Part shown: piece after piece, positions 739 to 3,529 of the stretch
Numbering within the stretch: the stretch's first letter is position 1
How the letters are laid out: every line of letters begins with the position of its first letter
Assembly: GCA_029337695.3 (NCBI GenBank)
Contig: GCA_029337695.3_4851.1
From: a phage
DNA: 46,785 nt
Strand: one strand, 5' to 3'
Notes under the pieces: model-generated
Told to the model about the DNA's origin: nothing
What the model saw: the letters and a program-made list of their open reading frames with translations, nothing else
The model's database searches: none
Translations under genes and position numbers: made by a program

Positions 739-1136
739 TGCCAGCAAAATTAAGAGGTGTCAGGCAGGCCGTAGAGAGAACTTCGCAAATTGTGGATGAA
801 ATAATCGCCACGAAAGCTGTGCGTGCTCTGAAGTCAGCGACATACATCATCCGCACTGAGTCAGCCACGTTGACGCCGATTGATACATCGACGCTGATTA
901 ACAGTCAGTTTGATACTGTGGAAGTTAGCGGAACTCGAATCACTGGCAAGGTTGGCTATTCTGCAAAATATGCGCTGTACGTCCACAATGCCAGCGGTAA
1001 ACTTTCAGGTAAGCCGCGCAGCAATGGTAACGGCACGTATTGGTCGCCGAATGCTGAACCTAGATTCTTAACAAAGGCTGCCGATAAAACTCGCAGCCTC
1101 GTTGATTCAGTGATAAAAAAAGAAATGAATATTTAG
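738..1136 (+). CDS. putative neck/tail component (HK97 gp10-like)
   Basis: 132-aa ORF whose start overlaps the upstream stop; synteny with head-tail joining genes. Confidence 0.4.
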   Translation: MPAKLRGVRQAVERTSQIVDEIIATKAVRALKSATYIIRTESATLTPIDTSTLINSQFDTVEVSGTRITGKVGYSAKYALYVHNASGKLSGKPRSNGNGTYWSPNAEPRFLTKAADKTRSLVDSVIKKEMNI

Positions 1137-1624
1137 CCGTGGTTTGCGAACTCCAAAAACAGTTCATCTACTTTTTTGCAATAGGCTTTATGGGCGGCTT
1201 CTTTGTCTGAAAACCTACCAAGATGATAGCTTTTCCCATGCATCTTTACCGTGGCTCTCCATTTTCCCGTGTACTTGCAAAAATGAACTCCTTTATATCC
1301 AGGCGTGTTTGATTTAGATATCTTTGTGTTCCTTGCGTTCTCGCAGTCACTGGCCTCCCTCAGATTTGAAATTCTATTGTCATCACGAATATTGTTTATG
1401 TGATCAATTTCATGCTCAGGGACATATCCATAATGGATAAACCAAGCCACTCGGTGCGCCCTTAATCTTTTCTTCCCAAGCGTTATGTATCCTGCGTCGT
1501 TGTGATAATTTGCAATATCACCTTTTGATATTTTCCCGCAACTTACAGCCCAGGTGAACAATCCGGTAATATGGTCGTATTTAACTCTTGACGCGATTGC
1601 TATGTAATCCCGCTCTGAAATCAT
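1133..1624 (-). CDS. HNH homing endonuclease with AP2 DNA-binding domain
   Basis: HNH motif HEIDHINNIRDDNRISNL plus C-terminal AP2-like YKGVHFCKYTGKWRATVKMHGKSYHLGRFSDKEAAHKAY; opposite strand to the flanking structural genes. Confidence 0.8.
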   Translation of the reverse strand: MISERDYIAIASRVKYDHITGLFTWAVSCGKISKGDIANYHNDAGYITLGKKRLRAHRVAWFIHYGYVPEHEIDHINNIRDDNRISNLREASDCENARNTKISKSNTPGYKGVHFCKYTGKWRATVKMHGKSYHLGRFSDKEAAHKAYCKKVDELFLEFANHG

Positions 1625-1753: not shown

Positions 1754-2170
1754 GTGTATGATATGTGCATCGATATTGCAATATTGGGGTTTAATATGAA
1801 CATGCTTGAGCTTGTTGATGCATATCTTCAGGATGCCGGATTGTATGATGGCTGGACTTCACAGTTGCAGTTCTGGAATGACACCGGAGACGGCAATGAG
1901 CAATTTATTGTTCTGCAATCCAATGGTGGCACGCAGGTGATGAATGGCCTCGGCGGTGACTTTTATTTCTCGCTGTATGTTGTCGGCAAACATGGACAGT
2001 ATAACGTGTCGGATGTTGATGCTAAAGCCAATGAGATTATCGAATACATCAAGACGCACCCGATTGATTCATGCGTTAACTACATCCAGTTGCAAGCGCC
2101 ACTCGGTAGACCAATGCTGACGGAAGAGAAAAGACCAGTACATGAGTTGCTTTTGCGGGTTGTGAAATAA
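1754..2170 (+). CDS. putative tail completion/terminator protein
   Basis: 138-aa ORF (alternative starts at about 1795 or 1801) between the neck genes and the major tail protein; followed by a terminator. Confidence 0.4.
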   Translation: MYDMCIDIAILGFNMNMLELVDAYLQDAGLYDGWTSQLQFWNDTGDGNEQFIVLQSNGGTQVMNGLGGDFYFSLYVVGKHGQYNVSDVDAKANEIIEYIKTHPIDSCVNYIQLQAPLGRPMLTEEKRPVHELLLRVVK

Positions 2171-2173
2171 ATA

Positions 2174-2194
2174 AAGCCGCATGAAGCGGCTTTT
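2174..2194. terminator. bidirectional rho-independent terminator
   Basis: AAGCCGC-atgaa-GCGGCTT stem with T-run on the plus strand and T-rich tract on the minus strand; sits between the + tail gene and the 3' end of the minus tRNA. Confidence 0.7.
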
Positions 2195-2198
2195 AATA

Positions 2199-2275
2199 TG
2201 GTGGACACGGAGGGATTTGAACCTTCAATCAGCCGATTATGAGTCGGTTGCTTTAACCAATTAAGCTACGCGTCC
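2199..2275 (-). tRNA. tRNA with CAU anticodon (Met or Ile2), CCA encoded
   Basis: Hand-folded 77 nt: acceptor GGACGCG/CGTGTCC (one G-U), D-stem GCTT/AAGC, anticodon loop CTCATAA, T-loop TTCAAAT, discriminator A, CCA. One mismatch each in the anticodon and T stems. Confidence 0.7.
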
Positions 2276-2382
2276 ATAAGTGCTGGTTTAAGCATTGCCA
2301 GCGTGCTTTCTTAACATCCAGCCCCGTAACCCATACATACCCCTACATATGATTGCGATAATGCTGGATGTTAAGTGTTGTG

Positions 2383-2476
2383 GCGACAGGAATCGAACCT
2401 GCTTCCATCGGTGCGCTGCCGATTACAGTACGCGCGGCGGTCAGCTACATGACTAGTATTTTCACTGTCGCCTATC
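2383..2476 (-). ncRNA. tRNA-like element (GGTTCGATTCC T-arm-like motif), non-canonical
   Basis: Minus strand reads GGCGACA...GCAGGTTCGATTCCTGTCGCCA with complementary ends, but I could not fold a canonical cloverleaf; possibly a degenerate or type II tRNA or a processing structure. Confidence 0.3.
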
Positions 2477-2756
2477 TGCTAGCTCGCCATTGAGCTTCAC
2501 CACAACGGAAAGAGCACTGAAACACACGTCTGTGTCGCCTGCGCAATGGGTTCGAGTTCCACTGATATGCGCCAATGCTCTTACCTGTTGTGTGCCGGTT
2601 ACGCGTCCGGCGTCTCTCGACCGCTAATTATTTTTGACTTCTTCAAATTGAGATTTCATTCATTTTGGTCACCTTCCTTTCAGAAAGTTGAAAACTCACG
2701 CATAAATCAATTCATATCTTAAGTAGACTTTAATCTACACCACAAAAATAGTAACT

Positions 2757-2776
2757 GTCAACACCTGTGATATAAT
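2757..2776 (+). promoter_or_regulatory. putative promoter with extended -10 (TGATATAAT) for the major tail operon
   Basis: TGTCAACACC...TGATATAAT about 40 bp upstream of the 2813 start; the same block recurs at 4150-4175; preceded by the AATCTACACCAC motif at 2732-2743. Confidence 0.5.
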
Positions 2777-2812: not shown

Positions 2813-3529
2813 ATGGCTATTTGTGCAAATGATAAAGGCGTTCTGGTTGGTCGAATGACCAGACTGTTCCTTGCTGAAGGGTGCGGTGACGCAGTTCCGG
2901 ATGCAGAAGATTGGAAGTATTTAGGCTCAACCACCAGTAAAGGTGTTGACTACTCGCCACAGACCACTACGTCGGAAGCGGATACCGCTGGCGGTTTTGT
3001 TTCCACTCTCGTTACCAGTTCTGACATGACCATCAGTGCAGAGGTAGAAATCCGCAAGAACGACCCAAGCGATGAGTTTGGCTTCCACCGACTGGTTGAG
3101 ATTTACGCCACTGAACTGAAAGCTCGTCGCCAGCCTTCCTTGTGGGTGCGTCAGGTGACTGGTGCAACTATCGTTACCGCGTACTGCAACATTACCAGCA
3201 TCAGTTACGAAGGTGGCACCAACGACATCGTAACAGGCAGCCTTGAATTCAAGGTTTACGATTCTGACAGTGTCACCGTTGAAAGCCTTGAACCTCTGAA
3301 GTTCACTACAGACTTGCCATCAACTGACACGGCTGGCAGCCCGTTAACCGTTGCTGTTGAGGGTGGCGTCTCTCCTTACACCTACGTGTGGCGCAAAGAT
3401 GGCGTGGTTGTTGGTAGTGAATCTGGCGCAACGCTGACAAGTCCTACTGCTGGTGTATATACCGTTACGGTCACGGATTCGTCCACTGACCCGGAAATTA
3501 TTATCAGCACGGCGTGCACCGTATCCTGA
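2813..3529 (+). CDS. major tail protein with C-terminal Ig-like domain
   Basis: 238-aa ORF upstream of chaperone and tape measure; Thr/Ser/Val-rich C-terminus typical of Ig-like decoration domains; own promoter and terminator. Confidence 0.7.
   Translation: MAICANDKGVLVGRMTRLFLAEGCGDAVPDAEDWKYLGSTTSKGVDYSPQTTTSEADTAGGFVSTLVTSSDMTISAEVEIRKNDPSDEFGFHRLVEIYATELKARRQPSLWVRQVTGATIVTAYCNITSISYEGGTNDIVTGSLEFKVYDSDSVTVESLEPLKFTTDLPSTDTAGSPLTVAVEGGVSPYTYVWRKDGVVVGSESGATLTSPTAGVYTVTVTDSSTDPEIIISTACTVS

Follow-up and report, generated by a model that had tools for sequence, protein, structure and literature searches.

What occupies the 640-bp gap (positions 2171-2812) between two plus-strand tail genes of a Skatevirus-like Salmonella siphophage, and how much of it is tRNA? 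The phage is the source of our window, by which we mean the whole 46,785-nt stretch of DNA analyzed (contig GCA_029337695.3_4851.1 of GenBank assembly GCA_029337695.3), which matches phages Skate, gmqsjt-1 and seszw at ~91-92% identity. A sequence-only reading had seen in the gap one well-formed tRNA on the minus strand, an inverted repeat and a "tRNA-like element" that would not fold, and had suggested degenerate tRNAs, an unusual long tRNA or processing signals. Our answer is that the gap holds a modular non-coding RNA, more organized than that reading supposed, and that its centerpiece is a new five-armed relative of tRNA-Arg, 127 nt long and encoded on the minus strand.

A tRNA-Arg relative with a fifth arm

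Folding the minus strand yields an acceptor stem, a D arm, a hairpin of 5 bp and 7 nt, and a T arm, with ~57 nt separating the D arm from the hairpin. Those 57 nt are a fifth arm. It replaces nucleotide 26, at the junction of the D and anticodon arms, and is built from a short stem (stem P), two invariant junction strands (AUA and GCGCGUA), a helix and a 20-nt loop. The parts are these:

2378-2504, minus strand: tRNA-Arg-like RNA, 127 nt, five-way junction; our own covariance model, run on 2369-2515 of this strand, scores 157.1 bits (E 2.6e-43)
2504-2498 with 2385-2379, minus strand: acceptor stem, 7 bp, UGUGGUG/CGCCACA
2497-2481, minus strand: D arm, G18 and G19 present
2479-2476 with 2428-2425, minus strand: stem P, 4 bp
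2472-2465 with 2444-2436, minus strand: extra-arm helix, 8-9 bp
2464-2445, minus strand: 20-nt loop with the palindrome ACUAGU at 2457-2452
2423-2407, minus strand: anticodon-type arm, 5 bp/7 nt, AUCGG-CAGCGCA-CCGAU, with the "anticodon" GCG at 2416-2414
2406-2403, minus strand: variable loop, GGAA, 4 nt
2402-2386, minus strand: T arm
2378, minus strand: discriminator A

The earlier reading was right that a tRNA-like element exists, and its T-arm motif (GGTTCGATTCC) does occur at 2399-2389 of the minus strand. The fold and the borders, drawn at 2383-2476, were wrong; the conserved element runs from 2504 to 2378. The closing helix that borders of 2383-2476 imply (GGCGACAG/CTGTCGCC) pairs in 68.2% of cells across 72 relatives, compared with 67.0% in shuffles, and we rejected the fold of 2383-2476 closed by GGCGACAG/CUGUCGCC, its pairing being no better than that of shuffles. 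Among the three suggestions, the unusual long tRNA came nearest, for the one element at issue: ARAGORN draws a cloverleaf, a 71-72-nt tRNA-Arg(gcg), only after the 57-nt arm has been deleted in silico. Left intact, the 127-nt RNA receives no ARAGORN call, intron and pseudogene modes included, and the single tRNA that ARAGORN reports in the whole window is the one with the CAU anticodon. A homologue has been annotated by PGAP as a 127-nt tRNA-Arg; exactly one copy is so annotated.

Several other ways of drawing the RNA were tried and set aside. In a class II reading, the extra arm becomes the anticodon arm and the 5-bp/7-nt hairpin a long variable arm. We rejected it because the hairpin, which ARAGORN accepts as the anticodon arm, has exactly the dimensions of one, and a variable loop of 4 nt comes next. 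The "Tyr-like" loop CUGUAAU is unconserved, reading CUGCAAU or UUGUAAU in relatives. A pseudoknot between GCGC of the junction strand and GCGC of the anticodon-type loop was dropped, the variants seen showing no covariation. An intron was rejected as well: ARAGORN's intron mode came back blank, no bulge-helix-bulge was visible by eye at the junction, and the arm is only 57 nt long, the known group I introns of bacterial tRNAs being at least 200 nt.

The loop of the extra arm deserves a paragraph of its own. The hexamer at its center takes seven forms in the family (ACUAGU, UCGCGA, UCUAGA, GCUAGC, UCUGGA, UCCGGA and ACCGGU), and all seven are self-complementary, so that these positions score as 100% "paired". 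Neighboring bases have no way to pair inside a single loop; a kissing dimer of two copies is therefore the simplest interpretation, and the palindromic loop may mediate such contact between two RNA molecules. There is precedent for self-association. ROOL and GOLLD are phage- or prophage-associated RNAs, often found beside tRNA genes. Together with OLE, they are reported to form homo-oligomeric complexes by cryo-EM, in a paper that also discusses kissing interactions (PMC12286853). For the 127-nt RNA, a dimer is what the changing hexamers suggest. In other respects these RNAs are different, being several hundred nucleotides long and not tRNA-like, and neither a sequence match nor a model match to them was found in the window.

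A family held together by base pairing

The 127-nt RNA is not peculiar to this phage. A BLAST search with 2276-2700 found that 2377-2519 is 92-96% identical to a segment in the lambdoid phages HK75, vB_EcoP-683R2, PDP110P1 and PhiR5_2. The family occurs in 175 of the 5426 complete Escherichia coli genomes, on chromosomes only, in at least 120 IMG/VR contigs (from two independent pattern scans) and in genomes of Klebsiella pneumoniae, Enterobacter and Superficieibacter. Its carriers, HK75, 683R2, PhiR5_2 and the Skate-like phages among them, include both temperate and virulent phages. There are at least 72 distinct members, and the family, widespread in enterobacterial phages, is as such well supported.

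So, too, are its strand and its architecture, to which covariation testifies. When 32 diverse members are aligned with MAFFT, in the alignment from which we built the covariance model, 95.1% of cells pair and 15 pairs have changed on both sides. None of 500 shuffles matches this, and control structures slid along the alignment reach 30-44%. Across all 72 distinct members the figures rise to 95.6% of cells and 20 pairs with compensatory changes, again with 0 of 500 shuffles matching, in an alignment (A6) that was fitted to the model structure and is biased toward it, and with many members so closely related that cell counts exaggerate how many events were independent. Covariation is seen in the anticodon-type stem, too (AUCAG/CUGAU, AUUGG/CCAAU and AUAGG/CCUAU), in members found by an independent D-arm pattern, that is, members picked without regard to the anticodon-type hairpin. 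In these same members variation of the loop is limited to [C/U]A[G/U]CGCA.

Could the locus nonetheless be what remains of a decaying tRNA cluster, degenerate tRNAs and chance hairpins with no function? Standard tRNA finders call just one tRNA here, the number of tRNAs at this spot differs among relatives, and the region is mosaic, all of which such decay would explain. It fits the covariation poorly. The 127-nt RNA is not decaying: every helix, the extra arm included, covaries across the 72 distinct relatives, with the 20 compensatory pairs and 95.6% pairing given above. The inverted repeat and both cargo modules described below covary too, with strand-specific G.U pairs. Temperate as well as virulent phages carry the family, which occupies three contexts, and classes as divergent as 74% identity speak against a few recent clonal copies. 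We find functionless remnants very hard to credit.

How does the element fare in Rfam? Rfam 15 holds no family for the 127-nt RNA, whether scanned at gathering thresholds or by E-value, over the window and the HK75, EC28 and lambda loci. In the window, a scan to E = 10 returned, beyond the CAU tRNA, just a local match to tmRNA, at 10.4 bits, over the T arm. The sequence-only reading had proposed that the absence of any covariance-model hit beyond the CAU tRNA would tell against its idea, and on its face that is the result Rfam gives. The check misleads, because the family itself is absent from Rfam; the model we built scores the element at 157 bits. Full-text literature searches found no description of the 127-nt family. 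Prophage small RNAs known from the neighborhood of Q and holin genes (Pas, StxS and STnc100) were considered and ruled out, being different, Hfq-type RNAs.

Decoding tRNA or mimic

How much of a tRNA is it? All four arms of the cloverleaf, acceptor, D, anticodon and T, are present and all covary; the fifth arm lies outside the definition of a tRNA. With canonical tRNA-Arg (RF00005), the RNA shares an acceptor stem of 7 bp, G18 and G19 in the D arm, a 5-bp/7-nt anticodon-type arm in which positions 34-36 read NCG, a variable loop of 4 nt and a T arm with GGUUCGAUUCC; equivalents of T54-Psi55-C56 are present. Unlike canonical tRNA-Arg, the RNA carries the 57-nt fifth arm at position 26, has A8, A33 and C37, and lacks A20/A21. 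In the family alignments, A8, A33, C37 and a C where A21 is expected vary little or not at all; a canonical tRNA would have U8, A21, U33 and a purine at 37. The element has no RF00005 match, the best match in the clan being tmRNA at 10.4 bits compared with a tRNA cut-off of 29. On the strength of A8, A33, C37 and the missing A20/A21, none of them expected of a decoding tRNA, we regard the RNA as a tRNA mimic rather than a working tRNA-Arg.

A working tRNA-Arg is nevertheless worth spelling out. It would read CGC and CGU (CGA and CGG in variants with U34), its extra arm either tolerated, much as class II tRNAs tolerate a long variable arm, or spliced out by a step of a kind not yet described. 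Removal of the arm leaves a perfect cloverleaf. In the anticodon, only the wobble base varies (G or U at 34), with C35 and G36 fixed; PGAP called one copy tRNA-Arg; and genuine rare-codon tRNAs (Ile CAU/AAU and Arg UCU) adjoin the element in relatives. The difficulties lie in the details. A33 stands in place of the near-universal U33, C37 in place of a purine and A8 in place of U. The D loop, AAYGGC, lacks A20/A21, and A20 is the main determinant for E. coli ArgRS. No CCA end is consistently encoded, there is no bulge-helix-bulge at the junction, and the insert falls far below the group I intron size mentioned above. The extra arm is itself under selection, and the Rfam tRNA model scores less than 10.4 bits on the intact element. 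Decoding by this RNA seems to us improbable.

If a mimic, then the natural comparisons are with other RNAs that have borrowed part of a tRNA. The tRNA-like domain of tmRNA and the tRNA mimic of the bacterial Y RNA YrlA are both non-decoding and both keep the acceptor/T-arm elbow, as does the 127-nt RNA, and the weak local tmRNA matches fall on its T arm and acceptor. It is no tmRNA, though. RF00023 scores 10.4 bits on the window and 20.2 bits on HK75, where 47 or more are needed, and ARAGORN reports no tmRNA. A tmRNA or mini-tmRNA was rejected because the 3:70 pair is U-A in place of G3.U70 and stop codons fill the insert; neither a tag reading frame nor pseudoknots are present. Unlike in YrlA, the 5' and 3' ends of the 127-nt RNA pair as an acceptor stem, and no Y RNA family was matched in Rfam scans of the window or the HK75, EC28 and lambda loci. 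Similar in concept are species 1 and 2 RNAs of phage T4 (rnaC and rnaD), of 139 and 119 nt, which like our element are longer than a tRNA and which lie within the phage tRNA cluster beside tRNA-Arg. The T4 record annotates them merely as small, stable RNAs, and to our knowledge no function has been assigned to either. The 3' end of rnaC has a T-arm-like CCGGGUUCGAAUCCCGG, and our model scores rnaC at 15.2 bits, over the T-arm region only. This falls short of detectable homology; neither a matching cloverleaf with an added arm nor a palindromic loop was seen in rnaC.

Leaders, helices and a link to phage lambda

Members of the family turn up in well-defined places, and these contexts are as well supported as the family itself. 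In HK75 and the lambdoid phages named with it, the element has Q/tR' on one side and the holin gene on the other, and its sense is that of the late transcript. In some prophages it sits instead between the boxB of nutL and the N start codon. The flanks of these N-leader copies are identical to lambda, on the 5' side up to GGGGUGUG and on the 3' side from CACACCACCAAAGCUAACUGACAGGAGA, and only the interior of lambda's own hairpin has been replaced; the acceptor stem continues into the long lambda stem. Another set of copies occupies an early-left operon leader, upstream of recT. The cassette of the Skate-like phages is another context.

Two helices recur around the element. The first, which we call the X helix, precedes the element in late leaders and in Skate-like phages and encloses a variable cargo. 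In the window it is as follows:

2501-2592, minus strand: X helix, ~19 bp, 5' strand CACAAC-A-GG-UAAGAGCAUUG (2592-2573), 3' strand CAGUGCUCUUUCCGUUGUG (2519-2501), found as an inverted repeat (I2) and in the minimum-energy fold

The X helix covaries. Its apical pair may be G-C, C-G, U-A or A-U, there are whole-stem swaps, and in contig L144 it is a perfect 20 bp. The second, the Y stem (UUGUGGUG ... CRCCACAAC), carries the 127-nt element as its cargo in late leaders and Skate-like phages. Both helices are found with other cargos in phages Bas80, LPSTLL, IME207 and Solent. They are also found in lambda. Just downstream of tR' (NC_001416, 44450-45300; at ~355-540 of that segment), lambda has an X helix, CACAACAGGTAAGAGCATTG ... 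CAGTGCTCTTTCCGTTGTG, and a Y stem, TTGTGCTG ... CAGCACAA, which covaries to UGUGCUG/CAGCACA, with cargos of their own. This points to a conserved and apparently unannotated RNA scaffold in the late leader of lambda. Because the 5' strand of the acceptor stem shares nucleotides with the X helix, on the 3' strand of the latter, the two structures compete, and the minimum-energy fold of the whole unit picks the X helix.

Some variants on the scaffold are worth recording. In Bas80 (~994-1140 of locus L150, minus strand) and IME207 (~791-942 of locus L152, minus strand), the Y stem holds a different cargo of 110-130 nt, which starts with AAUGCGCAGGCUGAUGCGC and ends with a hairpin, GCCGG...CCGGC. 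This cargo could encode a short peptide, MNAQADA..., but lacks a Shine-Dalgarno sequence. IMG/VR contig L132 (~780-1360, minus strand) apparently has two X-helix units in tandem upstream of the tRNA-like element, with weak extra model matches.

The lambda N-leader hairpin is an RNase III site, and a 1988 paper by Daniels and colleagues, cited in PMC7547250, is said to report sites of RNase III processing in lambda's late transcript. We took a leader helix of ~20 bp with lambda homology as the mark of a lambda-type leader hairpin, and the X helix, covarying at 19-20 bp, bears it. By homology, the flanks of the element belong to this kind, and RNase III cleavage of them is predicted. The "processing signals" of the earlier reading are therefore plausible for the flanking helices, by analogy with the lambda leader hairpins with which they are homologous. 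What sets the present case apart is the content: lambda's leader hairpins have unrelated sequence within their stems, and here there is a tRNA-like fold.

One could go further and have the whole assembly act only in cis. The X helix, Y stem and tRNA-like fold would then be signals for the processing or stability of the leader (tRNA punctuation, RNase III sites), parting the upstream leader (nutL, or the 6S/tR' region) from the downstream genes or tRNAs, and the excised RNA would have no job. Much of the geography agrees: the element is invariably in a leader position, the N-leader copies swap exactly the hairpin that lambda has there, the Y stem is retained with unrelated cargos, and the X helix offers the 5' strand of the acceptor an alternative partner. 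A mere processing signal, however, has no need of an invariant anticodon-type loop, of the junction strands AUA and GCGCGUA, or of a covarying arm with its palindrome, and these are kept over three genomic contexts and 74-96% identity. We lean against a role confined to cis while granting it a serious, if minority, share of our belief.

The swapping of cargos at fixed flanks suggests recombination, and raises the thought that selection acts on DNA: an attP-like or other recombination site, or a homing-endonuclease target on a tRNA gene, with the palindrome as a protein-binding site. Genes for tRNAs are frequent targets of integration and homing, and a gene for an HNH endonuclease lies 0.6 kb off. 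RNA accounts better for the rest. The helices accept G.U but not A.C, and on one strand only. The palindrome changes its sequence yet stays self-complementary, as base pairing would have it and a fixed protein site would not, and in lambdoid phages the element is far from the int/att regions. A DNA-level element is, we judge, very improbable.

What the RNA might do

From the sequences we infer that the 127-nt RNA is transcribed, processed, able to dimerize and active in trans, and a sequence of events can be proposed. The primary transcript would be cut within the long X helix or, where the copy lies in an N leader, within the extended acceptor helix; by analogy with lambda leaders, the candidate enzyme is RNase III. 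The cut would release GUUGUGGUG to pair with CGCCACAAC as the acceptor stem. Enzymes of tRNA maturation (RNase P and 3' trimming) would finish the ends. The product, stable and non-decoding, would act in trans as a mimic of tRNA-Arg, its palindromic loop pairing with that of a second copy. Its likeliest role would be to occupy or titrate a host factor that recognizes the tRNA elbow and acceptor stem, or an Arg-type anticodon loop. A processed, non-decoding mimic of tRNA-Arg that acts in trans and pairs with itself is the best explanation we have for the whole, and on its being right we are evenly divided.

Several points weigh against it, in addition to the limits on the 72-member alignment already given. 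Covarying self-complementarity is the sole evidence for the kissing dimer. With U at +1, a paired -1 position and no consistently encoded CCA, maturation by RNase P and CCA addition is uncertain. In lambda, Bas80, IME207, LPSTLL and Solent, the Y stem is found around unrelated cargos, and for that reason the Y stem could be the functional part rather than the cargo.

A bolder version gives the mimic a target. Enterobacterial phages, temperate and virulent alike, would make a homodimerizing mimic of tRNA-Arg which, freed from RNase III-type leader helices early or late in infection, would decoy or inhibit a host factor that recognizes tRNA-Arg or the tRNA elbow, such as a dimeric anticodon nuclease or another tRNA-directed defense. 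This we hold to be doubtful. If it were true, it would represent a new class of RNA-based counter-defense and give a function to long-unexplained leader RNAs of lambda-like phages.

Even short of that, a good deal would follow if the mimic is real. A large and conserved RNA family, in at least 120 viral contigs and ~3% of complete E. coli genomes, would have gone unannotated until now, in two heavily studied regulatory regions at that, the N-gene leader and the late-operon leader of lambda type. It would offer a testable case of a tRNA scaffold rebuilt as a five-armed and probably self-pairing RNA. And the X and Y leader helices of lambda would be a general carrier of exchangeable RNA cargos across unrelated groups of phages. 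For annotators, the family would account for the disagreement of tRNA finders at such loci, and our covariance model is supplied for finding it.

The unit as a whole

The gap as a whole reads as a self-contained, minus-strand non-coding RNA unit of ~550 nt, from a promoter-like site (2761-2732) to a terminator (2193-2173). In order of transcription the unit would comprise the promoter-like site, a leader with two small hairpins, the X helix with its cargo, the 127-nt RNA, a 13-bp hairpin, the CAU tRNA and the terminator. The flanking genes confirm that it lies among plus-strand structural genes, as had been claimed for the tRNA. Its remaining features, with these neighbors, are:

1754-2170, plus strand: tail terminator protein (Pfam Phage_tail_terminator_3)
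2813-3529, plus strand: major tail protein
2732-2761, minus strand: promoter-like site, sigma-70-like, TTGACA-18 nt-TAGATT (consensus scan, 10/12 matches)
2643-2679, minus strand: leader with a strong Shine-Dalgarno sequence, AAGGAAGG (2679-2672), and a 6-codon mini-ORF, MNEISI (2663-2643), read from the sequence
2593-2632, minus strand: "module 0", two small hairpins including GCCGG-ACGCGUAA-CCGGC, immediately 5' of the X helix
2521-2572, minus strand: two-hairpin module, the cargo of the X helix
2572-2541, minus strand: hairpin a of that module, GCGCA / 22-nt loop UAUCAGUGGAACUCGAACCCAU / UGCGC
2535-2522, minus strand: hairpin b, ACACA-GACG-UGUGU
2310-2375, minus strand: hairpin of 13 perfect base pairs, CUUAACAUCCAGC / GCUGGAUGUUAAG, whose conserved loop of 40 nt contains UAGGGGUAUGU (inverted-repeat search)
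2173-2193, minus strand: intrinsic terminator hairpin, AAAGCCGC-UUCAU-GCGGCUUU, then AUUUAUUU (terminator scan and inverted repeat I3; conserved in relatives)

The promoter-like sequence, GTGTTGACAGT..TTTTGTGGTGTAGATT, is kept in Skate, gmqsjt-1, Bas80, LPSTLL and IME207, and the leader downstream of it diverges; the Shine-Dalgarno/MNEISI leader is common to IME207 only, other relatives having a different one. Overlapping the -35 of the promoter-like site is a plus-strand extended -10 (TGATATAAT; 2756-2790) for the major tail gene. The two would make a putative pair of back-to-back divergent promoters, TGATATAAT having been read by eye and not called by the promoter scan. At the other end, the terminator, said earlier to be bidirectional, was found by the scan for the minus strand only; in the plus direction, where the same stem is followed by a mere TTTT, termination is plausible only.

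Modules of the unit have relatives of their own. The segment 2573-2631 matches phages CF-SP1, Solent, Kpn BU9 and PDP46, and module 0 has the same arrangement in Solent and the Skate-like relatives. The two-hairpin module is common to Skate-like siphophages, an rV5-like myophage tRNA array (its homologue is a spacer in the array of Cronobacter phage CR8) and N4-like podophages (PhAPEC5 and locus L177), with a further homologue in locus L172, always in the same sense as the neighboring tRNAs; among relatives it lies at 1501-1563 in locus L006 and ~1490-1550 in locus L008. All three helices of the module covary, and their U.G pairs fit minus-sense RNA only. The module also disposes of a second T-arm-like string, GGGTTCGAGTTCC, noted earlier on the plus strand. 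It is present there, at 2548-2560, and it is not a tRNA: it is the reverse complement of the loop of hairpin a, and neither ARAGORN nor Rfam makes a call in that plus-strand region. The invariant loop, UAUCAGUGGAACUCGAACCCAU, is complementary to a tRNA T arm.

The inverted repeat of the earlier reading, given as 12 bp, proved to be real and perfect; its coordinates were one off and its length is 13 bp (2310-2322 / 2363-2375). The hairpin is kept in all Skate-like relatives, in which one pair is C-G, U.G or U-A, with a further U.G in LPSTLL, which again fits minus-sense RNA only. Its loop motif, UAGGGGUAUGU (2332-2345, minus strand), recurs upstream of the tRNA-Ile of PhAPEC5 (~1205-1225 of locus L008) and in the Solent leader (~1255-1270 of locus L007), so that its carriers are unrelated phages: Skate-like, N4-like (PhAPEC5) and Sashavirus (Solent).

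Small plus-strand ORFs have been annotated in the corresponding regions of relatives (Skate 053-055 and Bas80 0055/0056). We judged them unlikely, since covariation at the level of RNA accounts for the conservation. A genome-reduction study of phage seszw was aimed at genes and not at the present region, and has no bearing on whether the unit is dispensable. Farther upstream, a minus-strand gene at 1133-1624 encodes an HNH endonuclease with an AP2-like domain (Pfam HNH_3, E 8.5e-16) between two plus-strand genes of the tail region. It looks like a homing-endonuclease insertion, because Skate and gmqsjt-1 carry the flanking genes back to back.

The CAU tRNA and its neighbors

The one tRNA that every tool agrees on was borne out on the minus strand:

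2199-2275, minus strand: tRNA, anticodon CAU, encoded CCA end (ARAGORN, tRNA-Met(cat), 2199/2202-2275; Rfam tRNA, 66.2 bits vs cut-off 29)

With a score above the cut-off and a canonical cloverleaf, it is a genuine tRNA. Its name is another matter. The same tRNA body has the anticodon AAU in Skate, gmqsjt-1 and PhAPEC5, and CAU in the window and Bas80, and its nearest matches in E. coli are annotated tRNA-Ile. For these two reasons it is probably of the Ile2 (lysidine) type, in which TilS modifies C34 of a CAU anticodon on an Ile-type body, rather than a Met tRNA. C4-G69 is present, and 5:68 is G.U. Anticodon position 34 is 2241 of the window; the homologues lie at 1898-1974 in locus L001, 2169-2245 in locus L002 (gmqsjt-1), 824-900 in locus L150 (Bas80) and 1075-1153 in locus L008. 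Depending on a single base, C34 or A34, the gene would thus have a lysidine-dependent anticodon of Ile2/Met type or an unusual Ile anticodon with A34.

Extra genes have settled at the same spot in some relatives. There is a tRNA-Arg(UCU) in gmqsjt-1 (1865-2170 of locus L002) and IME207 (300-700 of locus L152), and IME207 has a tRNA-Ser(GCU) besides. The same relatives carry ~270 nt in which a further T-arm-like string, GGAAGGTTCGAGTCATTTG, draws no call from any tool. As far as these sequences tell, the tRNA end of the cassette, too, is variable among relatives.

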